Below are positions 2,520 to 17,736 of a DNA stretch of 64,000 bases, in pieces. The stretch is from an uncultured virus (IMG/VR IMGVR_UViG_3300008111_000024) (taxonomy: Duplodnaviria > Heunggongvirae > Uroviricota > Caudoviricetes). A program made the translations under genes and the position numbers. A model generated the notes under the pieces. The model saw only the letters and a program-made list of their open reading frames with translations, ran no database searches and was not told the DNA's origin. Every line of letters starts with the position of its first letter. Position 1 is the first letter of the stretch. The stretch lies in IMG/VR virus record IMGVR_UViG_3300008111_000024; one strand, given 5' to 3'.

Positions 2520-2525
2520 GTGTGT

Positions 2526-2879: not shown

Positions 2880-2883
2880 GTAG

Positions 2884-2958
2884 TGTCCCCGACAGGACTC
2901 GAACCTGTGACTCCCTCATTAAAAGTGAGGTGCTCTAAACCAACTGAGCTACGAAGAC
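2884..2958 (-). tRNA. tRNA-Lys(UUU)
   Basis: Anticodon arm CCTCA-CTTTTAA-TGAGG. Confidence 0.95.
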
Positions 2959-2964
2959 ATTAAG

Positions 2965-3038
2965 TTGTCACAGATGGGCTCGAACCATCGACCTTTCGCG
3001 TATCAGGCGAACGCTCTAACCAACTGAGCTATGTGACA
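2965..3038 (-). tRNA. tRNA-Ile(GAU)
   Basis: Anticodon arm TTCGC-CTGATAC-GCGAA. Confidence 0.95.
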
Positions 3039-3044
3039 ATGTAG

Positions 3045-3116
3045 TCGGGGTAGCAGGGGTCGAACCTGCCGCCTCTTGGTCCCAAACCAAGCGTCTCTCC
3101 CCAAGACTATACCCCG
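3045..3116 (-). tRNA. tRNA-Pro(UGG)
   Basis: Anticodon arm CTTGG-TTTGGGA-CCAAG, C1-G72. Confidence 0.92.
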
Positions 3117-3136
3117 ATTATATACTTACCAATATG

Positions 3137-3146
3137 TCAAAGAACA
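3137..3146 (-). promoter_or_regulatory. boxA-like antitermination site
   Basis: TGTTCTTTGA(CATATTGG), recurring ahead of the other tRNA units. Confidence 0.6.
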
Positions 3147-3148
3147 CT

Positions 3149-3190
3149 AAAAACAAAAAACCCCCGAACTTATGATGGTTCGAGGGTTTT
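3149..3190 (-). terminator. Attenuator terminator of tRNA operon 1
   Basis: AAAACCCTCGAAC-catcataa-GTTCGGGGGTTTT followed by U-tract; 5' arm TCGAACCA is complementary to TGGTTCGA in the leader ORF. Confidence 0.85.
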
Positions 3191-3216
3191 GATGTTTGTT
3201 ATTTATTAACTTAATC

Positions 3217-3333
3217 TTATCCTAAATCTGTGTTATTAACAACAGTCGAACCAATAGATGACATACGCGGATACCAGCAATTACTAAATTGCGATTTCAC
3301 GTTAATGACCATATGTTGTTTATTAGTTCTCAT
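3217..3333 (-). CDS. Leader peptide 1 (38 aa, MRTNKQHMVINVKSQFSNCWYPRMSSIGSTVVNNTDLG)
   Basis: Between promoter and terminator; codons match operon 1 anticodons; not in ORF track. Confidence 0.85.
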   Translation of the reverse strand: MRTNKQHMVINVKSQFSNCWYPRMSSIGSTVVNNTDLG

Positions 3334-3369
3334 TGTTGTATTTTTTAATTGTTTTTCTTATAACTATTA

Positions 3370-3400
3370 CAAAGGTACAAAAAGTTTCGTAATTGTCAAA
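3370..3400 (-). promoter_or_regulatory. Bacteroidota-type primary sigma promoter for leader 1 / operon 1
   Basis: TTTG-N19-TACCTTTG. Confidence 0.85.
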
Positions 3401-3420
3401 CAATTTTAATTATTTTTTTA

Positions 3421-5019
3421 TTAAGCCCCTCCTGTATTTGATTTATCTATGTTTTTAGCAGTGCTCATTGCGTAAGATTTTGCCTGTCCTTTAACAAGTT
3501 TACCAACTTCTTTTTTACTGGTTGGTACTTTGATATCTACACCTGTCTTTTCTTTTATTTTGTCCGCTAATGCTTCTTCACCTTTATTTTTGGCAATATT
3601 TAACATCTCTTGTACAGTCTTATTACTACTTTGTTTCTTAATAAAGTTGTCAGTAACTTGTTTAAATTCGTTTTTATGTTGATTGATTGTCTGTATAATC
3701 TTAATCTCTTCAGGATTAAACGGTATTTTATTAATAGTTTTTTCAGCGATTTTTTCAAATGTTGCCGCTCCAACATTTTTAAGTGCGGGTATTTCAGATG
3801 CAAATGGTACGATACTAAATGCAAGAGTAAGTCCTGCTTCAGCTTTCTTCCCTTGAGAGAAGTAGATTGCGGAATCCGCAACACCAAGACCCGCGGCAAG
3901 TAAAGGGCCAACAAACGGTATAAACATACTCGCTATCTGTAAGTTTTCAATTACTTTATGTCCTTCTTCGGCAGTTAAACCTCCACCAACACAGGTTGGT
4001 TTTGCCCTATCATAAACACCTTTAATTTGAGACGCATTAACTGAATTGTAGAAAGCTGCCATAAAATTATAAACACCTTCAGGAAAATATACAGTAGCGT
4101 TACTTTCTGTACTATTTAAAACATCTTTAAGTAAGTCGTTCCATTTAAAATAAAAGTCCGACAGTATAAAATTAGCATATAACGGAGTTATTTTATTTTT
4201 ATTTTGTGTCCATATAGGTGATTGAGGATTATTAATCATATCCTTTATTGACGTATCATATGATGACAATTTTTTACTTGTCATTTTAACATTACCTAAA
4301 GAACTTAATCCAATTTGTAAACATTCGGTATTATTCCAACCTAATCTATTTGTTTGGATGTCGGTTAAATATTTCATACTATAAAGTGCCGCTAAATTAT
4401 AATGTTGGTTAGGGCTACTTGGTTTCCAAAAAGTATATCCACCAAAACTATCAACAATAAGTCCTTGCGATTTTAAAAATTGGTAGTTTTTTTGGTATTC
4501 AGTACTTGTTTCATAACAAGCCTTACCTCCTTTAGAATTTACAAACTGTCCGTTTTTAGAACAATACTCATCTCTTTCTTTCTTTTGTTTTTGTTCTTCC
4601 CATTTAGAAGCGTTCTCCCAATAATATTGGTCTCCAAAAGATTTACCACATAAATTTTTAGATAAGTAACCTGATAAAACCTTTGTCTTATCATAGTACC
4701 AAGACTTAGATACCGAGTTCCAAAATTTACCAGCATTGTTACCTGTACAATAGTAAACTGTGGAAGGAACTATTTTATTACCATTTTTTCTATCAACTGA
4801 TGCAGTAAAAGATGCTCCACCTGTTGATTTATCTTTTTTATCTCCGTATTGATGAGCGGTAAATCGAGTACCTTTAGGTATTTTAAGTTCACCACCAAGC
4901 ATAGTATTTTTAGTTAAAATTCTATCTTTAACTAACGTATATGTTTGATTGGCAGGTTTAGGTTTAGTTGCCTGTTCAATAATACTTTTAAACTGATTTT
5001 CGGTAATGATTACTCTCAC
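3421..5019 (-). CDS. Large hypothetical protein, putative virion cargo with hydrophobic helical hairpin
   Basis: 532 aa; N-terminal MRVIITENQFKSIIEQ; hydrophobic segment FIPFVGPLLAAGLGVAD; TATTTAT-N4-GTG start. Confidence 0.8.
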   Translation of the reverse strand: MRVIITENQFKSIIEQATKPKPANQTYTLVKDRILTKNTMLGGELKIPKGTRFTAHQYGDKKDKSTGGASFTASVDRKNGNKIVPSTVYYCTGNNAGKFWNSVSKSWYYDKTKVLSGYLSKNLCGKSFGDQYYWENASKWEEQKQKKERDEYCSKNGQFVNSKGGKACYETSTEYQKNYQFLKSQGLIVDSFGGYTFWKPSSPNQHYNLAALYSMKYLTDIQTNRLGWNNTECLQIGLSSLGNVKMTSKKLSSYDTSIKDMINNPQSPIWTQNKNKITPLYANFILSDFYFKWNDLLKDVLNSTESNATVYFPEGVYNFMAAFYNSVNASQIKGVYDRAKPTCVGGGLTAEEGHKVIENLQIASMFIPFVGPLLAAGLGVADSAIYFSQGKKAEAGLTLAFSIVPFASEIPALKNVGAATFEKIAEKTINKIPFNPEEIKIIQTINQHKNEFKQVTDNFIKKQSSNKTVQEMLNIAKNKGEEALADKIKEKTGVDIKVPTSKKEVGKLVKGQAKSYAMSTAKNIDKSNTGGA

Positions 5020-5042
5020 ACTTATAAATACCTTGAGAGTAT

Positions 5043-5568
5043 AAAAAAAGAAAGGTTCTAAATCATCCCCACGCCATTTTGGGAGAACCTTTCAAGTTTA
5101 AGTAGTTTGGCGGTCTATTATCCCACACCGATATGCCCAAGATTTGTTGGACCATAGTAACCATCCACGGTGGGTCTCTTGTACTTTGGTCCGTCTGTCA
5201 TCATACCCATCCACCTTACGGCTTCTACACAGGTACTCTTTTCACCATTTCCTCAGGACATCTTCACCCTACCCCCAAAGTTACGTGGTGAGTCTCACTC
5301 GGAAGCTGAGTGTGTATTGTAGAATTGTCCAGTATTTCTACAACTTGTAGATTGTATTACGACTAATTAAAGCCCCTCACCCCCTCAATCTATAATGGGG
5401 AATCCTTGTAACCTGTGTAGCCTCCCCCATAGCCTTGAAGCCTTCAAGTCAGGTTCACACACCATAACGGTCGGATACTTCCGTTATTCGTGGGGTCTTA
5501 AGTAGAGTATGACGTATGCTCGTCCTGTAGTTGTTTCCATCCGCGGACTCACGGTTCTCTCTACTTTG
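5043..5568 (-). ncRNA. Large (~520 nt) structured non-coding RNA with its own promoter and terminator
   Basis: TTTG-N20-TATATTTG at 5605-5574; raised GC; helices AAGTAGAG/CTCTACTT, ATAACGG/CCGTTAT, TTGTAGAA/TTCTACAA; ends GAAAGGTTCT/AGAACCTTTC plus U-tract. Confidence 0.7.
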
Positions 5569-5608
5569 TCTTACAAATATATGAATTTTGTTTTAAGTCG
5601 TCAAACAA

Positions 5609-6100
5609 TTAGTTTAAAAAAGATAAAACTTTTTCTTTAATACCTGATTGTTTTAATCCTTCATTACCTTTCGGTGTAAGTACAAAATTATCTAATCCCC
5701 AATCGTGAGTAAANNNNNNNNNNNNNNNNNNNNNNNNNAAATCCCATTGTCTAGACCAAGGAAAATCCTCACCATAATTGTTACACTCACTTAAGTTTGG
5801 AGTAAACGCAATTGGTTTTTTGACAATCCCTTGAGATTCATAGTATTGTCCCATCTCCTCAACGGTTGCCCATCTTTTCCAATCTGAAGATACAACAATT
5901 TCAGCACCCGTTAATTCCAATATTTCATTAAGAACTTTAATAGCTTTCTTATTGAAATTGTCAAAACGATACTCCATAGGTATTTGCGTTGGGGTTGTAG
6001 ACAACCTTAGTTCTCCCCATTTTTTTTGTTTCTTGTAACGACCACCCCACTCTGTGGATAGACAGATTACTCCATCGTGGTCTAAAAATATAACTTTCAT
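5609..6100 (-). CDS. HAD-family phosphatase (Swiss-Army-knife RNA-repair HAD type), interrupted by an assembly gap
   Basis: VIFLDHDGV, IVVSSDWK; N-run at 5714-5738. Confidence 0.8.
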   Translation of the reverse strand: MKVIFLDHDGVICLSTEWGGRYKKQKKWGELRLSTTPTQIPMEYRFDNFNKKAIKVLNEILELTGAEIVVSSDWKRWATVEEMGQYYESQGIVKKPIAFTPNLSECNNYGEDFPWSRQWDXXXXXXXXXFTHDWGLDNFVLTPKGNEGLKQSGIKEKVLSFLN

Positions 6101-6101
6101 A

Positions 6102-6734
6102 TTATGTGTTCCTTGTTAAACGTTCATAGTTTGATTTGTTCTCGAATTGGCGTTCAATTCTATATAAGTGATTTGGGTTTAATCCAAACCACGGGTCTGA
6201 GTGGTGAAACTTATTAAATTGTTCAGGTAACATATCTGAGTCATCGTCTAAGATGGCGTAGTCCTCAACCTCAGGATGTTTATCCAACCACTCTTGGATT
6301 TCCTGACCCCTTAAAGTTCTTCGTTCACCAGTGATTCCAACAAAGGTACCTTCATTAAAACCAAGCTCAACTAAAGCATCTTCCCATCTCTCAGGTGTGG
6401 AGACATAACCTTCAGTACCAAAATGATGTTTCCATACTGAAGAAACACAAATCTTAGTACCTGTCTTATTACACCACTCACTAAGCCACTTCCATTTCTG
6501 TTGACAAGTCTCTTCTTGTAATCTCTCAAATTGGTAATTAAATGTATAAAAGTTTTTAGGTGGTTTATAATCTGTTAATGAAACCCCTTTAGACTCAATT
6601 CTAAATAATTTTCTAACCAATCGTTTTATTTCATACCACCAAGTAATAGGTTTCCTCCAACGTCTTTTATGTCTTTCTTGATAAAAGACTCTAGAGTTCA
6701 TAACACCATCAATATCTAAAAATAAGACTTTCAC
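6102..6734 (-). CDS. HAD-family phosphatase (Swiss-Army-knife RNA-repair HAD type)
   Basis: VLFLDIDGV, ICVSSVWK, RGQEIQEWL, YAILDDDSD. Confidence 0.85.
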   Translation of the reverse strand: MKVLFLDIDGVMNSRVFYQERHKRRWRKPITWWYEIKRLVRKLFRIESKGVSLTDYKPPKNFYTFNYQFERLQEETCQQKWKWLSEWCNKTGTKICVSSVWKHHFGTEGYVSTPERWEDALVELGFNEGTFVGITGERRTLRGQEIQEWLDKHPEVEDYAILDDDSDMLPEQFNKFHHSDPWFGLNPNHLYRIERQFENKSNYERLTRNT

Positions 6735-6736
6735 AG

Positions 6737-6904
6737 TTAATTTTTAATTACATAACCCATATTGTGAAAAATTAACACCATACCTATAAATGATAGGATG
6801 ATACAGATTAATTTCATAATCACATCTAAAAATGTTTTCTTACTCCAAATAACTCCAAAAAAGAAGAATATTAAGGTTGCGATAATGTTGAATATTAGTT
6901 GCAT
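6737..6904 (-). CDS. Small membrane protein (55 aa, MQLIFNIIATLIFF...)
   Basis: Hand-translated ORF filling the gap; two hydrophobic segments. Confidence 0.65.
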   Translation of the reverse strand: MQLIFNIIATLIFFFFGVIWSKKTFLDVIMKLICIILSFIGMVLIFHNMGYVIKN

Positions 6905-6910
6905 ATTTTG

Positions 6911-7864
6911 TTATTTACTTATTAGGTCAAAGATAGTGATTTTTTTGTAAGGTTTGTTAGGAACAATGTGAATTTTTTTAATTTTTTTAGATAACTCAAT
7001 AGGGTCTTGGTTTTTCTCAAGATATTCTTTAATCAATGATTGTAATGGTCCTGATAAACTATTGTCAATATTAGTATGAATACACTTTGAAACCGCATAA
7101 TTTACCACTTTAGTTTTTTGTTTATCAATAGGGTAGGCATTACCACCTGACAATAATTTCTCTTGGAACTTATCAATATCTCTAACGTAATAGTTCAAAC
7201 AAACCTTAACGTTAGATGGTATCATACAATCTAAAACTAATGTTTCTTCGGCTCGTCTTGTTTTGTCTTTATATTGAGGGTCAATTGTGATTAATAAATC
7301 AATATTAATGTTTAATGTTTTTAATTTCTCACACGCCTTTATCAGATTATAAGAACCAAGACTATGACCTAACAATACCACTTTTCCGTTAGGATTTAAC
7401 TGTTTGAAATAGTAAACCTCTTGTATAATATCTTCAGTTGTTAATAGTAAATTATGGGTACCTGTGTATGTCGATACGTGAGTACTGTCGTTAAAATATT
7501 TTTTATTAATTTCACCTAACCCTGGAATATCCCTACTATTATGATTATCAACCATTGTTTTGTTTTTAGTTAAAACATCTTCGTGTGGACTTACAAAAGT
7601 TCCCTGAGCAACAATCACTAAATTAGTTTCACCCTTCTTAAGATAGTTCATATCATAAGGAGTCAACTCAACTTTATTGGTATAATAAGTTAATTTAATT
7701 TCGTGAATTGTTATTAAAAACCCTAAAAGACCAAGAAAAAATAATGGAATTGATTTTAATTTTAGTTTTGTAACTTTAATTAAGAATATAAATAATATTA
7801 ATGTCGCTAATACATTGAATATTAGTTGAGAGTGTACTAGAAAGGATGATATAATTTCCGTCAT
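6911..7864 (-). CDS. Membrane-anchored alpha/beta hydrolase
   Basis: Two N-terminal TM helices; LLGHSLG nucleophile elbow; LLITIDP; late His. Confidence 0.75.
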   Translation of the reverse strand: MTEIISSFLVHSQLIFNVLATLILFIFLIKVTKLKLKSIPLFFLGLLGFLITIHEIKLTYYTNKVELTPYDMNYLKKGETNLVIVAQGTFVSPHEDVLTKNKTMVDNHNSRDIPGLGEINKKYFNDSTHVSTYTGTHNLLLTTEDIIQEVYYFKQLNPNGKVVLLGHSLGSYNLIKACEKLKTLNINIDLLITIDPQYKDKTRRAEETLVLDCMIPSNVKVCLNYYVRDIDKFQEKLLSGGNAYPIDKQKTKVVNYAVSKCIHTNIDNSLSGPLQSLIKEYLEKNQDPIELSKKIKKIHIVPNKPYKKITIFDLISK

Positions 7865-7938
7865 AATTGTTTTTTATTTTAATGATAATAAAAAACCTCG
7901 TTAAATAAATTATGGAAATGAATTTGTTTTAAGATTTG

Positions 7939-8012
7939 TAGTGACGATGGGACTTGAACCCATAACCTTGACCGTATAAGAGTCCTGCGCTCACCGATTG
8001 CGCCACGTCACT
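7939..8012 (-). tRNA. tRNA-Ile(UAU)
   Basis: Acceptor AGTGACG/CGTCACT, loop CTTATAC, T-loop TTCAAGT. Confidence 0.85.
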
Positions 8013-8017
8013 ATATG

Positions 8018-8091
8018 TGGTCCCTGTAGGGCTCGAACCTACGACCCCCTGATTATGAGTCAGATGCTCTAACCGACTGAGCTAAGGGACC
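8018..8091 (-). tRNA. tRNA with CAU anticodon, probably Ile2 (lysidine type)
   Basis: TCTGA-CTCATAA-TCAGG; acceptor GGTCCCT with C4-G69/C5-G68 resembling Ile2 tRNAs. Confidence 0.8.
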
Positions 8092-8100
8092 GAAAAAAAA

Positions 8101-8201
8101 GTAGTCAGAGGTTGGTGGGAATATGACCTAGGGGCTAGCACCCGTTCCCCAATAATCGGTTGGACACCGATTGCCCAAATTAGGTACACCAACTTGACTA
8201 C
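8101..8201. ncRNA. Unassigned ~100-nt RNA with long bulged terminal stem
   Basis: GTAGTCA..GTTGGTG / CACCAAC..TGACTAC; internal hairpins AATCGGT/ACCGATT and CCTA/TAGG. Confidence 0.55.
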
Positions 8202-8208
8202 AGATACC

Positions 8209-8379
8209 TTAGAACAGTATTAAATCTCCGTGGCAGTTATCCCACTCATCAATCCAATTTAAACTTGGTCCGATATTAATATTATCAGTATCAAATTTCT
8301 CAACTTGAATACCTTGTTCTTCGGTCTTAACTTCTTCAGTTATATTTTTATTTTCGTTTGGGTCAAATACATAGTACAT
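8209..8379 (-). CDS. Small acidic hypothetical protein (56 aa)
   Basis: Hand-translated MYYVFDPNENK...WDNCHGDLILF. Confidence 0.6.
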   Translation of the reverse strand: MYYVFDPNENKNITEEVKTEEQGIQVEKFDTDNINIGPSLNWIDEWDNCHGDLILF

Positions 8380-8400
8380 AATTTAAGAGTGGGTTTTTTG

Positions 8401-8474
8401 AGCCTCCAGTCGGAATCGAACCAACGACCTACTGATTACAAATCAGTCGCTCTGACCTGCTGAGCTATGGAGGC
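8401..8474 (-). tRNA. tRNA-Thr(UGU)
   Basis: Anticodon arm ACTGA-TTTGTAA-TCAGT. Confidence 0.95.
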
Positions 8475-8487
8475 AATTACCATATAA

Positions 8488-8772
8488 TTATTTAACTTTT
8501 TTATATATGTACGTTATGGTATCACCAATTTTGTAAATATCTGACCTGTCTGTCGAAAATTTTTCACCACAGTCGGTTTTGTAGTAATATTTGGGTGTTA
8601 ATTCATTAATTGCAACAGGTTGTTTAACCCAAGCACTATCAATTACACACTTAACCACCTTATCACCAGGTTCAATTCGGTTACGATTTTCACATCCTGA
8701 TAGTAAGAATGCAACAAAACTAATAAGTACAAACCAAAGGATTGCTAATAAGATAGGAGTATTTTTTTTCAT
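8488..8772 (-). CDS. Putative lipoprotein
   Basis: Hydrophobic signal with LSGC lipobox; TAAATTTG-N4-ATG. Confidence 0.8.
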   Translation of the reverse strand: MKKNTPILLAILWFVLISFVAFLLSGCENRNRIEPGDKVVKCVIDSAWVKQPVAINELTPKYYYKTDCGEKFSTDRSDIYKIGDTITYIYKKVK

Positions 8773-8795
8773 AGTGCAAATTTATGTCAGTTTTT

Positions 8796-9044
8796 CTAAT
8801 ATACCAAATATTTCATTGAATTTTTCTTAATCCATTCAGGGTCGTATTTAAATTCTTTCCAATTATCAAAATCTTTCAAATCTTCCAAGACTTCAATTGG
8901 AACTAAAGTAAAACCTTCAGGTGCAATACCATCAAATTTATGGTAAGCCGCGTATTCAATTTTTTCTTTAATCATTTCACAAAATAAATCATCCTTAATG
9001 AACTCATTATGTTCTTGTTCTAAAATTTCGTCTTTACTATTCAT
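8796..9044 (-). CDS. Hypothetical protein (start revised to MNSKDE)
   Basis: Upstream part of the track ORF overlaps tRNA-Arg. Confidence 0.7.
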   Translation of the reverse strand: MNSKDEILEQEHNEFIKDDLFCEMIKEKIEYAAYHKFDGIAPEGFTLVPIEVLEDLKDFDNWKEFKYDPEWIKKNSMKYLVY

Positions 9045-9058
9045 AATTAAAAGATAAG

Positions 9059-9132
9059 TGACCTTGGAAGGATTCGAACCTTCGACCCACAACTTAGAAG
9101 GTTGTTGCTCTATCCATCTGAGCTACAAGGCC
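9059..9132 (-). tRNA. tRNA-Arg(UCU)
   Basis: Anticodon arm ACAAC-CTTCTAA-GTTGT. Confidence 0.95.
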
Positions 9133-9138
9133 ATATGT

Positions 9139-9315
9139 TTAAAGTTTTTTAACAATATATTTATGACCTGAATCTGAATTGGTTTCAAAAACGATTCTCA
9201 TTTTATCCGCTTCTTCCATAGTATCAAACTCCCATATTTCGTTTTGAGAATTTAATATGATTACAGGTAACTCAATACCATTTAAATTTTTGATGATTTT
9301 TACAATGACCCACAT
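9139..9315 (-). CDS. Small hypothetical protein (58 aa, MWVIVKIIKNLNG...)
   Basis: Hand-translated; upstream TATCTTTG. Confidence 0.65.
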   Translation of the reverse strand: MWVIVKIIKNLNGIELPVIILNSQNEIWEFDTMEEADKMRIVFETNSDSGHKYIVKKL

Positions 9316-9363
9316 AAAGTATTCAATTTCTTACAACAAAGATACTAATTAATTTTGAATTAA

Positions 9364-9522
9364 TCAAACAACCCCAAGTAAAATTAGTGATTTATGAATT
9401 AACAATAACATCAATATAAAAATCCCAAAAATAATCACATAACCAAAAACTTTATTATTAGTGGTTACTTGTTTCTCTGAACGACCTTGCCATTCATCAA
9501 AATTCCATTCATCATTTTCCAT
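9364..9522 (-). CDS. Small single-pass membrane protein (52 aa, MENDEWNFDEWQGRSEKQ...)
   Basis: Hand-translated; C-terminal hydrophobic helix. Confidence 0.65.
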   Translation of the reverse strand: MENDEWNFDEWQGRSEKQVTTNNKVFGYVIIFGIFILMLLLIHKSLILLGVV

Positions 9523-9551
9523 ATTAATAAGTATGTACTAATTTATTTGTG

Positions 9552-9623
9552 CGGTCTATGAGGGAATCGAACCCTCCTCACTACCGTGACAGGGTAGCAT
9601 CCTAGCCGATGAACGAATAGACC
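9552..9623 (-). tRNA. tRNA-Asp(GUC)
   Basis: Anticodon arm CTACC-CTGTCAC-GGTAG, G73. Confidence 0.95.
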
Positions 9624-9631
9624 AAAGTTTG

Positions 9632-9704
9632 CGGTCCCGACGGGATTCGAACCCGTACCTCGCACCGTGACAGGGTGGAATTGTAACCATTCAACCACGG
9701 GACC
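9632..9704 (-). tRNA. tRNA-Asp(GUC), divergent second copy
   Basis: CACC-CTGTCAC-GGTG, G73. Confidence 0.92.
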
Positions 9705-9709
9705 TTTTG

Positions 9710-9781
9710 AGCGAATAGACAGAATCGAACTGTCGTCTCCAACTTGGAAGGATGGAGTAATAACCACTATACGATATTCGC
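9710..9781 (-). tRNA. tRNA-Gly(UCC)
   Basis: Loop CTTCCAA, GCG acceptor, U73. Confidence 0.92.
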
Positions 9782-9790
9782 TTATTATTG

Positions 9791-9862
9791 AGCGGTAAGG
9801 CAGAATCGAACTGCCATCTGAGCCTTGGCAAGGCCCTGTAATAACCGTTATACGATTACCGC
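9791..9862 (-). tRNA. tRNA-Gly(GCC)
   Basis: Loop TTGCCAA, GCG acceptor, U73. Confidence 0.93.
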
Positions 9863-9946
9863 ATTTAGATGAGTCGTGGACTTGTGTACCACTTTTGTCC
9901 CCCTTTAGCTAGCCACTAACCTGAAGGTGTGGGGACCCCCATTTTA

Positions 9947-10210
9947 TTACGAATATTTTTTCGCGATATTTGCAATTGTTTCTTCCTCTTCCTTACTCAT
10001 TCTATGGTAAGAATTTGCTAAAACATCACAATAATCTCTATGAGTTTCCTCAATTAACGAATATTGTGGTGGTTTACCTATTCCTTTACTATTTTTTGTT
10101 AAGTAACCTCTATCGATTAAATCATCAATTAAATCATTAATCTCACTTTTGGAACATTCATCAATAAATTCAAAAACGTCCACATCAACATAAGTGCTAA
10201 ATTCTGGCAT
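9947..10210 (-). CDS. Hypothetical protein
   Basis: 87-aa ORF with A-rich leader, inside operon 2. Confidence 0.75.
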   Translation of the reverse strand: MPEFSTYVDVDVFEFIDECSKSEINDLIDDLIDRGYLTKNSKGIGKPPQYSLIEETHRDYCDVLANSYHRMSKEEEETIANIAKKYS

Positions 10211-10232
10211 AATAATTTTTTTTTAAGTTTTG

Positions 10233-10304
10233 TAGTCCGTGCGGGAATCGAACCCGCCTTTTATCCGTGAAAGGGATATGTCCTAACCGATAGACGAACG
10301 GACC
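10233..10304 (-). tRNA. tRNA-Glu(UUC)
   Basis: Anticodon arm TATCC-CTTTCAC-GGATA. Confidence 0.95.
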
Positions 10305-10321
10305 ATTTTTAAATCTTTTTA

Positions 10322-10352
10322 CAAAGATACAACCAATATTTCAAAGAACAAA
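10322..10352 (-). promoter_or_regulatory. Host-type promoter overlapping a boxA-like site
   Basis: TTTG-N19-TATCTTTG; TGTTCTTTGA(AATATTGG) at 10350-10341. Confidence 0.65.
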
Positions 10353-10366
10353 ATTTTTAATACTAT

Positions 10367-10401
10367 AAAAACAAAAAACCCATCTCTTTTGGAGATGGGT
10401 T
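10367..10401 (-). terminator. Attenuator terminator of tRNA operon 2
   Basis: AACCCATCTC-caaaa-GAGATGGGTT plus U-tract; CCATCTCCA is complementary to TGGAGATGG at the end of the leader ORF. Confidence 0.88.
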
Positions 10402-10425
10402 CAGTGAATTCATAGTATAGGAATA

Positions 10426-10500
10426 TCACACCATCTCCATTGGAGTAGTCGCTTCAGTTCTATCTGTCCCGCCTATTAGTATGATATGTGTAGTTTTCAT
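10426..10500 (-). CDS. Leader peptide 2 (24 aa, MKTTHIILIGGTDRTEATTPMEMV)
   Basis: Codons ATA CTA ATA GGC GGG ACA GAT AGA ACT GAA match operon 2 anticodons; not in ORF track. Confidence 0.85.
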   Translation of the reverse strand: MKTTHIILIGGTDRTEATTPMEMV

Positions 10501-10561
10501 TTGCAGTTTTATTTGTTTTTAATTAAATATATGGGTATAACGTAAAAAGTCAAATTTTATT

Positions 10562-12379
10562 TTAAAAATTAAATCCAAGTTTACCTTTTAATGGTTTTAT
10601 TTTAGGTTCTGTGACAGTTTTAGTTGGTTTTTCGATTGGTTTTGTTTCAGAACGTCGATTAATTATTGCATCTTTATTAACATTTGGGTCTACTTGTCGA
10701 ACAACTTTAGTATTGGACCTTACCAAAGATAATACAGTTTCTCTAACGTTATTGTTTGAAATATTAGTTTCTTCTAATTTAAATTCAGTCACAGGTTCTG
10801 GTTTAACCGTTTTCTCTTCAACAGGTTTAACATACTTTTTAACCTCAGGTATTCTTGATTCAACAACTCTAACCGCAGTAGTGTTATCTAATTTTTTAAT
10901 AACCTCATCAACTTGAGTATTTGGTTTATTATCAACTTTTGGTATTTCTTTAATGGTTGTTAATTGATTTGCGACTGTGACATCGGTAAAGTCTAAATTA
11001 TTATATATTAAAACAAATTCGGAAGTTATTAATTCATCTAAAGGACCAAAATTAGTTTTTTGTCTTGATAATTCTACGTAATGTTTTCTTAAAGAAGAAC
11101 CGTAATTAGTTTTAACATCGCTAGTCAAACCTTTACTGTGAATTCTTCTATAAAAAAGAATTTCTTTACCCAAAGAAGTTCTAACTCCGTTTTTTTGAAT
11201 TCTCGCCATAAAGTCAGAATCCGCCGCACATCTCCATCCCTCAAAACCATTAAACCTTAAAAATGCTTCTTTCTTAATTCCAAAAACACCTTCACCCCAT
11301 AGTCTTGAACTTTCTTTATATTTCGGGTCGGACTCATTAATTTCACCATAAAAATTATGAAACATTGGTTTAACACATTCGTAGTTAGTTAAATCTTTAA
11401 TAATTTCTTTAACCATATCTTTTTTCATAATATCATCGGAATCAAAAAATATGATGTTTTCTGATTTCACCCTTTTAGATAATGTGTTTTTTATAATGTA
11501 TGGACCAACATTTTCGTTGAAATAAAAAAACTGAACTGAGGGGTTAAATTTATTAGTTTTTACAAACTCTAAGGTTTCTTCACAATTATCAATTCCGACT
11601 AATATTTCAAAATTATTTATTTCTTTACAAGAATTAACTATTGAATCTAAACATTCCTTAAGGTATTCAACTGTGTTAAACGTTGGTACTATTATTGATA
11701 CAGTTTTATTTGTAAAACTATTATTAGTAATTACGGTTTGTTTTAAATCTGATTTGAATTCGTTTTCATATATTGATTCATTTATTTTTTGTTGGGTAAC
11801 AAATCCTGAATTATGTTTTACGCAGATAATATCAATATTATTTTCATTAGAATACTTTCCAATCCAAACGTCCGCCATATTAGGTTCTCTAAAATAATCC
11901 ATACCTATTTTAAACAAATCCGTATGAAATGCCATTACTCCTGTCCCTCCAAATTGAACCTTAATGTCGTTAGGGTTGATTGAGTTAAAATGATTAACAA
12001 TTGAATGTCTCCCATAAAAATTTTTTATAGGGAACGACTCAAAACTTCTAGAGTGTAAGGTCACAATAGACTTTCTTTTATATTCTTCAATTTTACCAAT
12101 CATATAGTCAGTATAATTTTCAGGATATATTAAATCGTCATCTATAGTAAAGAAATAACCTTCAGAATCCATTAACTTATAAAATTTATAAGCATCTCCT
12201 TTGTCATTATCCGTGATGAATAGATTTATTTTTTTATCATATAATTCTACGGGAATTTCATCATAATCATTAAGTGCTAAATTAATAACATCACATTGAT
12301 TATAAATTGACTTGATTGTATTAATTAGGGTATCCTCCCTTTTATAGCTGGTGATGTTATATATTACACGATTCTTCAT
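10562..12379 (-). CDS. Two-domain glycosyltransferase (GT-A plus GT2) with low-complexity tail
   Basis: FTIDDDLIYP; VSIIVPTFN...IIFFDSDD. Confidence 0.88.
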   Translation of the reverse strand: MKNRVIYNITSYKREDTLINTIKSIYNQCDVINLALNDYDEIPVELYDKKINLFITDNDKGDAYKFYKLMDSEGYFFTIDDDLIYPENYTDYMIGKIEEYKRKSIVTLHSRSFESFPIKNFYGRHSIVNHFNSINPNDIKVQFGGTGVMAFHTDLFKIGMDYFREPNMADVWIGKYSNENNIDIICVKHNSGFVTQQKINESIYENEFKSDLKQTVITNNSFTNKTVSIIVPTFNTVEYLKECLDSIVNSCKEINNFEILVGIDNCEETLEFVKTNKFNPSVQFFYFNENVGPYIIKNTLSKRVKSENIIFFDSDDIMKKDMVKEIIKDLTNYECVKPMFHNFYGEINESDPKYKESSRLWGEGVFGIKKEAFLRFNGFEGWRCAADSDFMARIQKNGVRTSLGKEILFYRRIHSKGLTSDVKTNYGSSLRKHYVELSRQKTNFGPLDELITSEFVLIYNNLDFTDVTVANQLTTIKEIPKVDNKPNTQVDEVIKKLDNTTAVRVVESRIPEVKKYVKPVEEKTVKPEPVTEFKLEETNISNNNVRETVLSLVRSNTKVVRQVDPNVNKDAIINRRSETKPIEKPTKTVTEPKIKPLKGKLGFNF

Positions 12380-13083
12380 TATTTCGCAATTAATTTTTCA
12401 TTTCTTCTAAGTTCAGGTAATATTACAGACTCGTGGTCACCGTGAGTTGTTAACGTATTAATAACGTGATACATATTAAACCCATTCTCAAATAATCTAA
12501 GACTAATTTGTTGACCGACTCCACTACTAATATTTGGGTTTTTATCCCATCTTGACGCTGGTATTGGATTAAGTTTAAAATCTAAAACTTCAAAAAATTT
12601 ATATTCACACATAAAAACTAACTCACACCATTGTGTTTTATAATATTCATCATACTCTATTGGGTAAACTCCTGTCCATTTAGGGGTGTTTCTTTGGGAA
12701 TCAATCATTAATGTTCCTAAACTGATTTTATTATCGTCAGGTATACTTTCAAAAATCCTAACACTTTCTTGAAAGAAATTTTCTTTTAATCTCAAATCGT
12801 CTTGGAAATAAAAGTAATATTTTGCATCTATTTTTTGACTAAACTTAAATGTATCGCTTATCACTCTCCAAAGATTTTTTAACCCATTATTTTTTACATA
12901 TTTAATATATTTTACATCATACTCACTTAAATCGTAAGTATGTTTACTCCCATCGTCGAATACGACCACAAACATATTATATTCGGTGTATTTAAAAATA
13001 TCGTCCAATAATTGTTTTAGCATATCCTCTCTTTCATATGTTGTTATAACAATACAAAAATCATATTTTTCACCACTCTTCAT
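12379..13083 (-). CDS. GT2-like glycosyltransferase
   Basis: IVITTYER, VVVFDDGS, FQDD. Confidence 0.85.
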   Translation of the reverse strand: MKSGEKYDFCIVITTYEREDMLKQLLDDIFKYTEYNMFVVVFDDGSKHTYDLSEYDVKYIKYVKNNGLKNLWRVISDTFKFSQKIDAKYYFYFQDDLRLKENFFQESVRIFESIPDDNKISLGTLMIDSQRNTPKWTGVYPIEYDEYYKTQWCELVFMCEYKFFEVLDFKLNPIPASRWDKNPNISSGVGQQISLRLFENGFNMYHVINTLTTHGDHESVILPELRRNEKLIAK

Positions 13084-13568
13084 TAAAATAATATTGTAAA
13101 TATTTTGTCTTCACAACCCACTGATAAGGTTATTTTTTTATCTAGTTTTTCTGATAAGAATATTGACATATTTCTATCATTTTCTCTATTAGTGTCATCA
13201 ATAATTATAGGTATGTTTTGTTTAAACATTTCATAGTGATTAATAATATTAATTCTATTTTCTCCAACAGGTCCGTCAACAAGTAATAAATCATAATGTT
13301 TTGGTAATTTATTTTTTAATATTTCTACATCATACCAACCATCAATTAAAGGTGCATAGATATAGTTTGACTCAGGTACTAAACCAAGCCATTTTTCGTC
13401 GTGTTCAATACTATAAACATTATAATATTTTACTAATTCTTTGGTACCGTTACCGCTACCTAATTCAAGGATTGTACTACCTTTTGGTAAGTTTTCTAAA
13501 ATCCACTCAAAAAGTTCTTTTGAAATTGCCCATCCACCGAATGATTCGTAGTTCACATCACTATTCAT
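13083..13568 (-). CDS. Class I SAM-dependent methyltransferase-like protein
   Basis: ILELGSGNGT, SIEHD, LLLVDGP, IIIDD. Confidence 0.85.
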   Translation of the reverse strand: MNSDVNYESFGGWAISKELFEWILENLPKGSTILELGSGNGTKELVKYYNVYSIEHDEKWLGLVPESNYIYAPLIDGWYDVEILKNKLPKHYDLLLVDGPVGENRINIINHYEMFKQNIPIIIDDTNRENDRNMSIFLSEKLDKKITLSVGCEDKIFTILF

Positions 13569-13621
13569 TTAATTTTAATTCTTAGTATAATTATAATTAT
13601 AATTATTTGTAAATCTATAAT

Positions 13622-14452
13622 ATGAAAAAAACAGTAGGAGTAATAGGTAATGGGTTTGTTGGTGAAAGTATTTCATTTGCATTCAGTCCAACCTCAGATG
13701 TTAAAGTATACGATATTAACCCATTAAAAAGTTTAAATACTTTAGATGAGGTTATGAATCAAGAATTTATTTTTGTTTGTTTACCAACACCAATGAATAT
13801 TGATGGTACTCAAGATATCTCGTATATTGAGAATTTTTTTGGTAATATCATTTATGATGAAAAAAGAATTTTCATTATAAAATCAACAGTACTTCCAGGT
13901 ACTACAGAATCTTTAATTGAGAAGTACGGTCATAACATTGTATTCTCACCTGAATTTTTAACTGAAAGGACTGCAAAGCTTGATATGTTAACACAAGCTA
14001 GAATTATAATTGGTGGTGATGAAAACTTAACCAAAAAAGTTGAGGGTCTGTTTAATGACAGGTTTATGAATAGACATATAATTCATACTGATTCCAAAAC
14101 TGCTGAATTTGTAAAATATATGAATAATACTTTTTTTGCTGCAAAAGTTAGTTTAATGAACGAATATTATAGACTTTCTAAATTAATTGGTGTAGATTGG
14201 GAAAAAGCGTTATACGGGTTTGCTTCTGATGGCAGAATTGGTGATTCTCATTTACACGTTCCAGGTCCTGACGGCAAGTTAGGTTTTGGAGGTACTTGTT
14301 TTCCAAAAGATATTAATGCGTTAATAACTATGGCATCTGAAGTAGGTTGTAATATGAACATTTTAGAAGCCGCTTGGAAAACTAATTTAGAAGTTAGACC
14401 TGAACAAGATTGGAAAGAATTAAAAGGTAGGGCAGTTTCTGAAAAACAATAA
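13622..14452 (+). CDS. UDP-glucose/GDP-mannose dehydrogenase family (short phage form)
   Basis: GVIGNGFVG, KSTVLPGT, FSPEFL, GFGGTCFPKD. Confidence 0.92.
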   Translation: MKKTVGVIGNGFVGESISFAFSPTSDVKVYDINPLKSLNTLDEVMNQEFIFVCLPTPMNIDGTQDISYIENFFGNIIYDEKRIFIIKSTVLPGTTESLIEKYGHNIVFSPEFLTERTAKLDMLTQARIIIGGDENLTKKVEGLFNDRFMNRHIIHTDSKTAEFVKYMNNTFFAAKVSLMNEYYRLSKLIGVDWEKALYGFASDGRIGDSHLHVPGPDGKLGFGGTCFPKDINALITMASEVGCNMNILEAAWKTNLEVRPEQDWKELKGRAVSEKQ

Positions 14453-14476
14453 TATTTATAAATAAAGAAAATCGTG

Positions 14477-14584
14477 ATGAATATGAAATCATTAAATATG
14501 GGTCTTTTAGTACAGGATAATATTACGTCGGCACTGTTATGTGTTCGAGGAGTGACCTTACGCGATTTAGATAAACAAAACTAA
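14477..14584 (+). CDS. Leader peptide 3 (35 aa, Leu-rich, MNMKSLNMGLLVQDNITSALLCVRGVTLRDLDKQN)
   Basis: After TATTTAT motif at 14453; 7 Leu codons; contains antiterminator GTGACCTT; not in ORF track. Confidence 0.75.
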   Translation: MNMKSLNMGLLVQDNITSALLCVRGVTLRDLDKQN

Positions 14585-14613
14585 AATTGAACAAAAAACT
14601 AAAACGTATAAAG

Positions 14614-14647
14614 AAAGGTCACAAGAAATTGTGACCTTTTTTGTTTT
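14614..14647 (+). terminator. Attenuator terminator upstream of the HNH / tRNA-Leu / clpP unit
   Basis: AAAGGTCACAA-gaaa-TTGTGACCTTT plus U-tract; AAGGTCAC is complementary to 14552-14559. Confidence 0.85.
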
Positions 14648-14678
14648 AATGAAAAAAAATTATTAAATTTGCCAAGAT

Positions 14679-15182
14679 ATGGAAAGAGTATTAGTGTTAA
14701 ATGCAGATTATACCCCGTTAAACGTGACATCCTCACAAAAAGGATTTAAACTAGTTTTCAAGGGTAAAGCGGAAATCGTTAAGAGTTCCGAAAGTCCTAT
14801 TATTGCAGGATACCAAAACTTTGTACGTCCATTAATTATACGTTTGTTTAAATACGTAAAATTTAGGGTTAGGAATATTCGGGTTAACAGACATAGAATA
14901 TATCGGAGAGATGGTGGAGAGTGTGTTTATTGTGGTTCAACTAAACAGTTAACCTTAGACCACGTTATTCCTAAATCTAAAGGAGGTTCAAACGAATGGA
15001 CTAACCTTGTAACTTGTTGTCATAAATGTAACCTACATAAAGCTGATAGAACACCTCAAGAGGCAGGTATGACTCTACGTAAAAAACCGTATGAACCATC
15101 ATTGTTTATTGACGTGGTAAATAATTCTTTGGAAAGGGTATGGGAAGATTACAAAAATTCATTCGGGGTGTTGACAGTTTAA
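14679..15182 (+). CDS. HNH endonuclease (McrA-like family)
   Basis: VLVLNADYTPL; RDGGECVYCG...TLDHVIPKSKGG...NLVTCCHKCN. Confidence 0.9.
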   Translation: MERVLVLNADYTPLNVTSSQKGFKLVFKGKAEIVKSSESPIIAGYQNFVRPLIIRLFKYVKFRVRNIRVNRHRIYRRDGGECVYCGSTKQLTLDHVIPKSKGGSNEWTNLVTCCHKCNLHKADRTPQEAGMTLRKKPYEPSLFIDVVNNSLERVWEDYKNSFGVLTV

Positions 15183-15259
15183 AAAATACGCCGTACATTT
15201 GTACTGTTCTTTGATATACGAAACGCTCGGGTGGTGGAATAGGTAGACACGTCAGACTT

Positions 15260-15923
15260 AATTCTAAATGTCTGTATATTTATTAGTATGAGAATACAAA
15301 TAAGTGAAACAGAATTTAAAGAAGTGGTTTTTAGTTCTATGACTATGGCACAAGCTTCAGCTAAACTTGGATTACACTTCAATACTTTTAAACGTATTGC
15401 GGTTAAACTAGGTGTTTATAATCCGAATCAATCGGGTAAAGGTGTAAAAAAGGATATGTCATCCGTTTCAATACCTTTAGACGAAATATTAGAAGGTAAA
15501 CATCCAAGTTACCAGACTTTTAAACTTAAGAATAGAATGTTAAGAGAAAATATTCTCAATAATGTTTGTTCTGAATGTAAAATAAATGAGTGGAATGGTA
15601 AACCAATTAGTCTTGAACTTGACCATATAGATGGTGTACGTACTAATCATAAGTTGAATAACTTAAGATTATTATGTCCAAACTGTCATTCTCAGACAGA
15701 CACCTATAGAAGTAAAAACAGGATTTGAGTGCTTGAGAAGAAATTCTCAATGTAGAACTCCGTAAATTCGGTGAACCCTTTCAAATGGGAATACCGAGCC
15801 AAGCCTCGAAAGAGGAAGGTGTAGAGACTAGACACGGAGAACCTAAGTCTGAAAAGATAAGGTTAAGGTATAGTCCAGACCACAAACAACAATTTGGTTG
15901 GTAGTGAAAACTATAGTGGTAAG
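15260..15923 (+). mobile_element. Group I intron (664 nt) with homing endonuclease ORF
   Basis: U before the 5' splice site, terminal G; core elements AAATTCGGTGAA, AATACCGAGC, GTAGAGACTA, AAGGTATAGTCC; P3 CTCCGT/ACGGAG. Confidence 0.92.
15288..15728 (+). CDS. Intron-encoded HNH endonuclease
   Basis: CSECK...LELDHIDG..N..NNLRLLCPNCHSQT; TATTTAT-N4-ATG. Confidence 0.9.
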   Translation: MRIQISETEFKEVVFSSMTMAQASAKLGLHFNTFKRIAVKLGVYNPNQSGKGVKKDMSSVSIPLDEILEGKHPSYQTFKLKNRMLRENILNNVCSECKINEWNGKPISLELDHIDGVRTNHKLNNLRLLCPNCHSQTDTYRSKNRI

Positions 15924-15978
15924 AAAATCTGATGGACCGTAAGGTCCGTGCGGGTTCGATTCCCGCCCCGAGTACTAA

Positions 15979-16180
15979 GAGTAAGAGATACTCTGAAAGT
16001 TTGGTAACGTTCTTTCAAGATGTTATAGTTGTCGCCTTCCACGACTTTAGAGAGGGGGTCGTCGGAGCCTGGATGTAACAAATCCACCGAGTATGTTTGA
16101 CGTTTTAAGCGGTAAGACGCGTTGGGTTTTTCAATAGGAAAAACTGTGAATATCTACTCACCGTAATCTCAGGTGGGGCC
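15979..16180 (+). ncRNA. Unassigned structured RNA (~200 nt) between the two tRNA-Leu genes
   Basis: Hairpins GAGTA/TACTC, ACGAC/GTCGT, TGGAT/ATCCA, CGTTTTA/TAAGACG, GTTTTTC/GAAAAAC. Confidence 0.6.
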
Positions 16181-16184
16181 AAAT

Positions 16185-16264
16185 ATCAGAGTGGTGGAAT
16201 TGGTAGACACGTATGCCTTAGGAGCATATGCTACGGCGTGAGGGTTCGAGTCCCTCCTCTGATA
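16185..16264 (+). tRNA. tRNA-Leu(UAG)
   Basis: Anticodon arm TATGC-CTTAGGA-GCATA. Confidence 0.95.
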
Positions 16265-16284
16265 CTAAATTTTAAAATTTAATT

Positions 16285-16956
16285 ATGGATTACGGAAAAG
16301 AATTTAAATCGTATTACACCAAACACTTGTATAAACCATCAAGTAATTTGGATTATTATTCAAAACAAATTGAGAACTCTATGACTCCTTACATTTTGGA
16401 GGAAAGAGAAATGAGAGCAACTCAAATCGACATCTTCTCAAGATTGATGAGAGACCGTATTCTATGGGTCGCTGGTGAAGTTAATGATAATATGTCAACC
16501 ATTGTACAGGCTCAGTTAATGTTCTTAGATTCTGCGGACAATTCTGATATTACAATGCACATTGACAGTCCTGGTGGTTCAGTTAAATCAGGTTTAAGTA
16601 TGGTAGACGTAATGGATTACATTAAATGTGATATCCGTACCGTAAATACAGGTATGGCAGCATCAATGGGTTCAGTACTATTAGGAGCAGGTACAAAAGG
16701 TAAACGTTCATCATTACGATTCTCTCGTACTATGTTACACCAATCTTCAGGTGGGTTCCGTGGAAATATTCAAGATGCGGAAATCGATATGAAAGAATGG
16801 AAAAAAATCAATGAAACGTTATTCGAATTACTTGGTTCTTATTGTGGTAAAACCGCAAAACAAGTTATGAAAGATGCAAGTCGTGATTTGTGGTTATCAT
16901 CACAAGAGGCATTAGATTACGGAATAATCGATGAGATTGTAAAAACTAAGAAATAA
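16285..16956 (+). CDS. clpP: ATP-dependent Clp protease proteolytic subunit
   Basis: DIFSRLMRDRI, IDSPGGSV, GMAASMG, MLHQ, RDLWLS. Confidence 0.95.
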   Translation: MDYGKEFKSYYTKHLYKPSSNLDYYSKQIENSMTPYILEEREMRATQIDIFSRLMRDRILWVAGEVNDNMSTIVQAQLMFLDSADNSDITMHIDSPGGSVKSGLSMVDVMDYIKCDIRTVNTGMAASMGSVLLGAGTKGKRSSLRFSRTMLHQSSGGFRGNIQDAEIDMKEWKKINETLFELLGSYCGKTAKQVMKDASRDLWLSSQEALDYGIIDEIVKTKK

Positions 16957-16984
16957 AAAAAGGAGGTCAAATGACCTCCTTTTT
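16956..16984. terminator. Bidirectional intrinsic terminator
   Basis: AAAAAGGAGGTCA-aa-TGACCTCCTTTTT. Confidence 0.85.
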
Positions 16985-17038
16985 CACAGGAAAAATTACC
17001 CCTCCTTTTATTTATATTTATTTATAATAAACAAGCAA

Positions 17039-17728
17039 TTACGCCTGGATATTCATAGGGTTTGAAATCAATGAAGATTTCATAGTGCCAAGTTGTTCAG
17101 TGAACTTACTTGACATTCTCTCAACTAATGGACAAACAATACCTGAAATTTTACTTTCAATCTTGTCTGCGAAATCACTTTGTTTGATAACATCATACAA
17201 AGAGTTTCTTACATAATCCATAAAATCACCACCCATACCTTTTTCATATTCTAATTGTCTTAGATATGCTTCAGGTACTGATTCTGCAATTTTTCTAGTT
17301 AAGAATTCACATTCAGTGAAAAGTTTAGGAACATCTTTTAAATCTGTATTCCCTAAAGCAGTAATTAAAAAGTTCTTTAGGAAATTATTATCTTCTATTC
17401 CAAGTTTTTCTAAAATAAATTTAACCCCTTTTTCTTTGAATAATTCAATAACCGCATTTGTGGTACCTCCAAAAAGATTACCCAATACGTTGAAAACACT
17501 TGATACGTTTTCTTCGATTATAGAATTATCGAACCCTTGTTTGTGTAAGTGAACCATTTCAGTTAAAATGGTGACAAATACCTTATCAAGGTCTTTTTTG
17601 TTTTTAATTTTATTTGACTCAAGAATGAAATTAAATCTATTTTTAACAATCATTGATTCAGTTAAAACTTGTTTTTTAACTTCCTTGGTCTCAATTAAGT
17701 TTTTCTTTATAGTATTTTTAAGACTCAT
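17039..17728 (-). CDS. Hypothetical helical protein (putative virion cargo)
   Basis: 229 aa; LIE/LTE/ILE motifs at the N-terminus. Confidence 0.8.
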   Translation of the reverse strand: MSLKNTIKKNLIETKEVKKQVLTESMIVKNRFNFILESNKIKNKKDLDKVFVTILTEMVHLHKQGFDNSIIEENVSSVFNVLGNLFGGTTNAVIELFKEKGVKFILEKLGIEDNNFLKNFLITALGNTDLKDVPKLFTECEFLTRKIAESVPEAYLRQLEYEKGMGGDFMDYVRNSLYDVIKQSDFADKIESKISGIVCPLVERMSSKFTEQLGTMKSSLISNPMNIQA

Positions 17729-17736
17729 ATTTTAAA

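Follow-up and report, generated by a model that had tools for sequence, protein, structure and literature searches.

Why should a phage place a promoter, a short reading frame and an intrinsic terminator directly ahead of a block of its own tRNA genes? We asked this of a leader region on the minus strand of an uncultured phage sequence. Our main reading, to which we give a probability of roughly 65%, is that the region is a ribosome-mediated (leader-peptide) attenuator of the trp style, gating transcription from its promoter (P1) into the tRNA block according to the supply of that block's own tRNAs.

The window, by which we mean the whole stretch of 64,000 nt analyzed, is AT-rich (GC about 31%). 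Its open reading frames (ORFs) encode a head maturation protease, an endolysin, a baseplate hub and HNH endonucleases, and one of its proteins bears a type IX secretion sorting domain. Promoters in the window have the form TTG-N19-TAnnTTTG, which we take to be the Bacteroidota consensus, and the host group is apparently the Bacteroidota. The relatives that carry the leader unit are uncultured lake phages; since the 78-kb contig of one of them has a completeness rating of 26%, the source of the window is probably a jumbo phage. On the minus strand ARAGORN finds 22 tRNA genes arranged in two blocks (Table 1), to which Rfam adds a tRNA-Trp (2448-2519) and a weak tRNA-like element (1392-1461).

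The surroundings of the blocks hold several further features. HNH homing-endonuclease ORFs lie in or near them (1768-2307, 14679-15182 and 15288-15728) and fit a frequent reshuffling of tRNA content among relatives. Between the blocks, two neighboring ORFs (5609-6734, minus strand) contain the HAD domain of "Swiss Army Knife" RNA-repair proteins, which on this domain match may link them to the repair of damaged tRNAs; a run of 25 N at 5714-5738 falls here, where an RNA-library contig has 118 other letters. Also between the blocks, at 5040-5604 (minus strand), about 520 nt of GC-rich sequence without ORFs run from a TTG-N19-TAtaTTTG promoter to a terminator. Metatranscriptome contigs stack up on this stretch to a summed depth that reaches about 990 and have variable joints near 5177-5270; Rfam gave no match at E values of 10 or less. 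The stretch resembles an abundant large noncoding RNA of no recognized family, in a setting similar to that of the GOLLD and ROOL RNAs.

The leader unit and its predicted switch

Table 1. Positions of the leader units, their parts and the tRNA blocks in the window
Feature	Position	Strand	Details
Promoter P1	10524-10553	-	TTGACT...TAtaTTTA; 10/12 consensus matches
Leader ORF	10426-10500	-	24 codons + TGA; peptide MKTTHIILIGGTDRTEATTPMEMV
Segment 1 (protector stem, 5' strand)	10477-10487	-	AUAUCAUACUA; codons 5-8; from the MFE fold
Protector stem, 3' strand	10423-10433	-	UGGUGUGAUAU; last codons and stop; 3-nt overlap with segment 2
Segment 2 (antiterminator, 5' strand)	10431-10439	-	UGGAGAUGG (= TGGAGATGG); codons 21-23
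Intrinsic terminator hairpin	10376-10402	-	11 bp, loop of 5; GAACCCATCTC/CAAAA/GAGATGGGTTT
Segment 3	10390-10398	-	CCAUCUCCA (= CCATCTCCA); within 5' arm of terminator
T-rich tail of terminator	10366-10375	-	TTTGTTTTTA
Predicted promoter P2	10322-10351	-	TTG-N19-TAtcTTTG; 3' of terminator, would bypass attenuator
Conserved motif	10332-10349	-	GTTCTTTGAAATATTGGT; inside P2 spacer
tRNA block 2	7938-10304	-	Nine tRNAs, with small ORFs between them
tRNA-Glu-UUC	10232-10304	-	Block 2
tRNA-Gly-GCC	9790-9862	-	Block 2
tRNA-Gly-UCC	9709-9781	-	Block 2
tRNA-Asp-GUC (two)	9631-9704, 9551-9623	-	Block 2
tRNA-Arg-UCU	9058-9132	-	Block 2
tRNA-Thr-UGU	8400-8474	-	Block 2
CAU tRNA	8017-8091	-	Block 2
tRNA-Ile-UAU	7938-8012	-	Block 2
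Sister attenuator	3149-3399	-	Heads tRNA block 1
Sister promoter	3370-3399	-	
Sister leader ORF	3217-3333	-	38 codons; MRTNKQHMVINVKSQFSNCWYPRMSSIGSTVVNNTDLG
Sister segment 2	3246-3253	-	
Sister segment 3	3176-3183	-	
Sister terminator	3157-3190	-	
tRNA block 1	34-3116	-	Pro, Ile-GAU, Lys, Cys, Trp (Rfam only), Asn, Tyr, Gln, weak tRNA-like element, Val, Phe, His, Ser-UGA, Arg-ACG, Ser-GCU

Between 10553 and 10322 the minus strand carries, in order, P1, an ORF of 24 codons, the terminator and a second promoter (P2), with tRNA-Glu next; the upstream neighbor of P1 is the gene for a 605-amino-acid glycosyltransferase, ending at 10562. P1 departs from TTG-N19-TAnnTTTG by one mismatch and can alternatively be scored as TTGACT-16-TATATT, and its TTGAC and TATATTTAAT are invariant in all 8 aligned relatives. 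The ORF begins at least 19 nt past P1. A check of coordinates bore out every element that the first-pass annotation had placed here: the leader and its codons 7 to 16 (ATA CTA ATA GGC GGG ACA GAT AGA ACT GAA) are present exactly as claimed, the 9-bp pairing of segment 2 with segment 3 is there, and so is a second promoter past the terminator, which is kept in 8 of 8 relatives. The identities it had given to the nine downstream tRNAs agree with ARAGORN for eight; the ninth, the CAU tRNA, had been called Ile and is labeled Met by ARAGORN, with Ile2 possible.

The RNA of this region is predicted to fold well. From 10520 to 10360 the minimum free energy is -45.2 kcal/mol (z = -6.0; none of 200 shuffles was as good), and that fold includes the protector stem, in which codons 5 to 8 pair with the end of the ORF. 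The duplex between the leader and the terminator arm reaches -16.8 kcal/mol, against -9.2 ± 2.1 kcal/mol in 2,000 dinucleotide shuffles (p = 0.0045). We simulated a translating ribosome by hiding 30 nt around each A-site codon and folding the RNA up to segment 3. With the ribosome stalled at any of codons 1 to 16, the antiterminator formed with 9 pairs; at codon 17 it had 7 pairs, and from codon 18 to the stop it had none. The simulation thus agrees with the earlier proposal that a ribosome at the stop codon blocks the antiterminator, and its permissive codons (1 to 16 or 17) take in the codons 7 to 16 to which a sensing role had been ascribed. When no ribosome was placed on the block 2 leader, the fold up to segment 3 already favored the antiterminator over the protector. 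In terms of the folding model this is a weakness of the attenuator reading, unless the protector, which is made earlier, is kinetically trapped; the protector stem of this leader may be too weak.

A sister unit of the same build precedes tRNA block 1. When masked in the same manner, its antiterminator formed with the ribosome at codons 1 to 13 and 20 to 23 and was blocked from codon 24 onward, and without a ribosome its protector won. Reading through the stretch between its terminator and the first tRNA revealed no canonical TTG-N19-TAnnTTTG promoter.

The attenuator that we favor would operate as follows. Host RNA polymerase would initiate at P1, and a ribosome would translate the 24-codon leader. 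When decoding is fast, the ribosome, at codon 18 or beyond or at the stop, would cover UGGAGAUGG, the terminator would form and transcription would end in the T tract. A delay at or before codon 16 or 17 would leave UGGAGAUGG free to pair with CCAUCUCCA, no terminator would form and the polymerase would continue into tRNA-Glu and beyond. The permissive codons (ATA twice, GGC, GGG, ACA, GAT, AGA, ACT and GAA) are largely read by the block, so that the switch would gauge those tRNAs. The sister unit would do likewise for block 1, the two units together splitting the code, and each switch would close a feedback loop by sensing a shortage of the tRNAs downstream of it and then resupplying them. 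The data show the anatomy of the units, their conservation, the codon mirror described below, covariation among the sister relatives, and the leader and read-through sequence in RNA libraries; we infer that the leader is translated in a race with the polymerase, that tRNA shortage is the signal and that read-through is regulated.

RNA libraries were consulted as assembled contigs from four metatranscriptome runs of four studies, at low depth (2 to 4.6); contigs of this kind give no strand, ends or levels. One (X16 contig 15) matches 10308-10496 with 0 mismatches, starting at codon 2, passing through both terminator and P2 and ending 4 nt short of tRNA-Glu, and others match 10301-10451 (X19 contig 31) and 10371-10467 (X17 contig 23). 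A further contig (X19 contig 24), with 8 mismatches, spans the greater part of a relative's sister ORF (3240-3337). RNA libraries thus contain leader sequence as well as sequence that runs on across the terminator, in contigs that are strandless and for which DNA carry-over is possible. The first-pass annotation had named an untranscribed leader as the finding that would undo its proposal; contigs that carry the leader across the terminator argue against that state of affairs, in part, given the missing strand and the possible carry-over. Upstream of P1, 10543-10800 had no contigs in X16, X17 or X19, and we did not count such gaps as evidence; nor did we use one contig that ends at 10371 in the T tract or a joint of depth 2 (10362-10492).

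Codons of the leaders and tRNAs of the blocks

If each leader were a test message for its block, its codons should mirror the tRNAs that follow. We compared the leaders with a null set of in-frame windows drawn from 45 long ORFs (14,097 codons). Codons 2 to 23 of the sister leader (RTNKQHMVINVKSQFSNCWYPR) cover all 14 of the amino acids served by block 1 tRNAs, as did none of 300,000 null windows, and its run of 24 consecutive in-set residues (codons 4 to 27) has a length never reached in the null windows. In the block 2 leader, 16 of 23 codons can be decoded by block 2 under liberal wobble rules (p = 0.0015), and 12 of 23 under conservative ones (p = 0.02), a modest result alone; in-set runs in this leader reach a length of at most 8 (p = 0.005). 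Within the control windows of the leaders, codons read solely by the leader's own block and solely by the other block stand at 19:2 and 9:3 (Fisher p = 2.5e-4). The fit to the own operon was better than that to the other operon in 12 of 12 locus rows having both leaders (p = 3.7e-5 to 0.024), among which two pairs (L018/L006 and L019/L007) are the same contig fetched again, one (L023) is nearly the window itself and several loci are partial. According to the masking simulations, the permissive windows of both leaders coincide with the mirror codons, the limit for the sister leader, codon 23, falling just within the 3' end of its in-set run.

Changes in block content are accompanied by changes in the leader. 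The block 2 relatives form two sub-families, one Glu-first (MK..HIILIGGTDRTEATTPMEMV) and one Asp-first (MKNLN.ILLGGTEADT..RT.MV.). Asp-first blocks have tRNA-Leu-UAA and tRNA-Leu-UAG and are without tRNA-Arg-UCU; their leaders have three or four Leu codons (TTA, CTA) in place of ATA and no AGA in the control window.

The mirror also has gaps. Block 2 lacks tRNAs for AAA, CAT, ATC and CTA, as had been noted earlier, and all four of these codons lie within the permissive window. GCG likewise is without a cognate tRNA in the strain of the window, and two near-identical relatives (L022/L023) carry a tRNA-Ala-UGC, which explains the orphan. This tRNA lies, along with a CAU tRNA and an unusual tRNA-like element, in a stretch of about 340 nt absent from the window (9860-9945, compared with L022 5190-5540; junction at a GGGG run). 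In reduced relatives the leader retains codons with no matching tRNA in the block: those for N, K, S, F, Y and R in L004 and L011, and those for T and A in L034. Several codons that the leaders use are rare in the phage, namely GGC (2% of Gly), GGG (12%), CTA (8%), TCG (4%), CCG (5%) and TGC (5%). Rare regulatory codons raise the sensitivity of attenuation, according to the available part of one account (PMC1183508).

How specific, then, is the signal? We lean narrowly toward a closed-loop tRNA homeostat, in which two attenuators divide the code, each leader tests every tRNA of its block and a shortage triggers resupply; host shut-off or host anticodon nucleases could bring such a shortage about. 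A stall also follows amino-acid starvation, which is not curable by more tRNA. The alternative that survives best, and that we nevertheless hold to be unlikely, is a real attenuator that senses general translation capacity (amino-acid starvation, ribosome availability or infection stage), with a codon mirror that is in part incidental or a matter of inheritance. Because a leader has no more than one or two codons for each amino acid, any slow-down would delay the ribosome, and the unmatched codons of the reduced relatives point the same way. Block 2, moreover, can be made without passing the switch, because P2 lies past the terminator and is conserved in all 8 relatives; it appears from this predicted promoter to have an unregulated input as well. 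General ribosome-stall sensors do exist, the whiB7 and armZ leaders being examples. A general sensor is hard to reconcile, however, with the complete coverage of block 1 amino acids by the sister leader at a level absent from the null windows, with two leaders that split the code as the blocks do in every row compared, or with Leu codons that occur where Leu tRNAs have joined the block.

Conservation of the leader units

A megablast search with 9000-12000 and a tblastn search with a 713-amino-acid ORF found no match among 50,697 phage records. Relatives were gathered through the neighboring glycosyltransferase (5 loci), through an 82-amino-acid ORF beside tRNA-Arg (12 viral and 31 metagenome loci) and through DNA patterns, and a script searched for cassettes having a terminator no more than 200 nt upstream of a tRNA and a short ORF ahead of that terminator. 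The block 2 unit was found in 8 of 8 distinct relatives with ORF, stems, antiterminator, terminator and both promoters kept, P2 in the form TTG...TAnnTTTG. In all eight versions the leader ORF is open, the start codon is kept, indels within the ORF are multiples of three and the ORF ends 22 to 24 nt before the terminator, across a spacer whose sequence has diverged. An element pattern matched nine contigs in IMG/VR, all nine of them phage, and had 0 matches in 185,579 prokaryote species genomes; the five of these nine that were new to the set of relatives (L054, L055, L058, L060 and L061) have tRNAs directly downstream in every case. In L015, L030 and L034 the cassette sits behind other sequence, and in Asp-first genomes what lies upstream is unrelated; the cassette therefore belongs to the tRNA block rather than to the upstream gene. 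The cassette is not universal, since relatives of the L001 type are without a leader before their tRNA-His block and have a hairpin RNA there. In the window, a promoter and a GC-rich hairpin RNA with a stem of about 12 bp (about 1150-1230, minus strand), conserved with L001 10060-10125, likewise head the Phe/His part of the tRNA block at the place where a leader ORF would be.

Across the eight relatives, 96.6% of cells in the protector helix are paired (two pairs change, on one side only, and L030 has 2 mismatches in this stem), as are 94.3% in the terminator and 91.7% in the antiterminator, 7 of whose 9 pairs never vary. No pair in this family of eight is altered on its two sides at once, since the arms of terminator and antiterminator do not vary, and support for the structure is therefore conservation and not covariation.

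The sister family provides what the block 2 family lacks. Its ORF, 34 to 40 codons long, is open in 11 of 11 distinct relatives, a twelfth version (L064) having 31 codons. In every member the antiterminator segment lies at nt 76-94 of the ORF, and its sequence tracks five different terminator arms: segment and arm read TGGTTCGA/TCGAACCA in the window and TGGTTCGG/CCGAGCCA or CCGAACCA in another class, the other classes having AGTTCAG/CTGAACT, TTAGGG/CCCTAA and GTC..GGGT/ACCC..GAC; GGTTCGA/TCGAACC is an example of such covariation. MAFFT misregistered the antiterminator columns of this family, and we replaced pair counts with duplex energies, compared for each class with 2,000 dinucleotide shuffles. 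The p values were 0.04, 0.0045 (the class of the block 2 leader), 0.065, 0.15, 0.38 (Asp-first), 0.01, 0.0065 and 0.0125; the eight classes pooled give a Fisher combined p of 2e-6, which overstates independence in that the classes are related. A matrix crossing leaders with arms did not have a clean diagonal, because classes share sequence. By these duplex energies, the sister family shows true antiterminator covariation, which is absent from the block 2 family.

This evidence bears on a further alternative, in which P1, the ORF and the terminator make up a self-contained gene for a small peptide and the tRNAs are transcribed only from P2 or from the conserved motif within it. The conserved peptide sequence, the promoter of its own, the strong terminator and the conservation of P2 would all suit such a gene. 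We nonetheless consider it quite improbable: a reading of the sister unit shows no canonical promoter of the TTG-N19-TAnnTTTG form between terminator and tRNA, complementarity between antiterminator and terminator covaries where a plain gene would have no need of it, each family's peptide mirrors its own block although the two peptides are unrelated, and RNA-library contigs cross the terminator.

The conserved motif, GTTC[TA]TTGAC[AG]TATTGGT, had 10 matches in the 12 sources scanned, each 8 to 28 nt before a tRNA. Nine precede the first tRNA after an attenuator terminator; the match in L004 precedes the second, tRNA-Gln. The motif occurs twice in the window (10332-10349 and 3128-3145) and also in L006, L015, L030, L034 and L004. 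We considered it as a promoter and set this aside, its spacing fitting neither sigma-70 nor TTG/TAnnTTTG; it may serve in processing or be bound by some factor. Elsewhere in the window, a lone tRNA-Phe at 47723 is preceded by a gene-end terminator, a TTG-N20-TAtaTTTG promoter and a partial motif, GTTCTTTAA (47785-47808). That third terminator was also considered as an attenuator and rejected as a plain gene end without a short leader ORF.

The last alternative, that the hairpin is simply the terminator of the upstream glycosyltransferase gene and that the ORF and the 9-bp match are chance, would account for the lack of any other terminator between the gene end at 10562 and the hairpin, in DNA whose AT richness makes short ORFs common, and is strongly disfavored by a cassette that recurs behind unrelated upstream sequence, by ORFs open in all 8 relatives and all 11 sister members, and by the duplex and fold statistics given above.

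Known attenuators and the meaning of a proposed tRNA switch

The ribosome-mediated attenuator that we propose has the layout of the multivalent attenuators of enterobacteria (thrL for Thr/Ile and ilvL for Ile/Leu/Val, with trpL, hisL, leuL and pheL): a promoter, a short ORF, a protector, an antiterminator overlapping the 5' arm of the terminator, and a T tract. As in those leaders, the antiterminator is hidden by a ribosome that has come to the end of the ORF, with the regulatory codons upstream of the antiterminator. For this comparison we used general principles of leader-peptide attenuation as set out in the available part of PMC1183508. Unlike the enterobacterial leaders, the phage units regulate tRNAs rather than enzymes, sample about 8 to 14 amino acids once or twice each instead of containing codon runs, and are borne by a phage, apparently in Bacteroidota. 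No Rfam family, including Thr_leader, Trp_leader, His_leader and Leu_leader, matched 10341-10555 at E values up to 1, and the sister unit scored 27 bits against Thr_leader, under the gathering cutoff of 55.

Two other systems come close. In the E. coli pheST attenuator, charged-tRNA supply regulates a part of the translation machinery through the pheM leader peptide. This attenuator shares the leader-peptide logic with the phage unit and differs in controlling a synthetase, in answering to a single amino acid and in being cellular. T-box riboswitches resemble the phage unit in sensing tRNA status and switching between terminator and antiterminator, but they bind uncharged tRNA directly and need no ribosome, whereas the phage unit has a conserved ORF; the T-box model (specifier loop and T-box bulge) had no match by Rfam over 1-20000 at E values up to 1. 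A full-text literature search found no published account of leader-peptide attenuation of tRNA genes, nor does the available part of PMC13602947 contain one. The mechanism is classical; the tRNA target and the design as a multi-codon test message are new.

Phage tRNA genes are usually regarded as passively expressed cargo. If the attenuator reading is true, tRNA supply would instead be sensed and regulated during infection, and these units would be the first case of tRNA genes under leader-peptide attenuation. Large phages may commonly use such a design, which would then be a general mode of tRNA-gene regulation that has yet to be described. The phage would also offer a compact natural sensor of tRNA availability in Bacteroidota, a phylum in which attenuation has been little studied. 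The reason why phages bring tRNAs along could then be tested directly, since depletion or cleavage of the corresponding host tRNAs should increase read-through.
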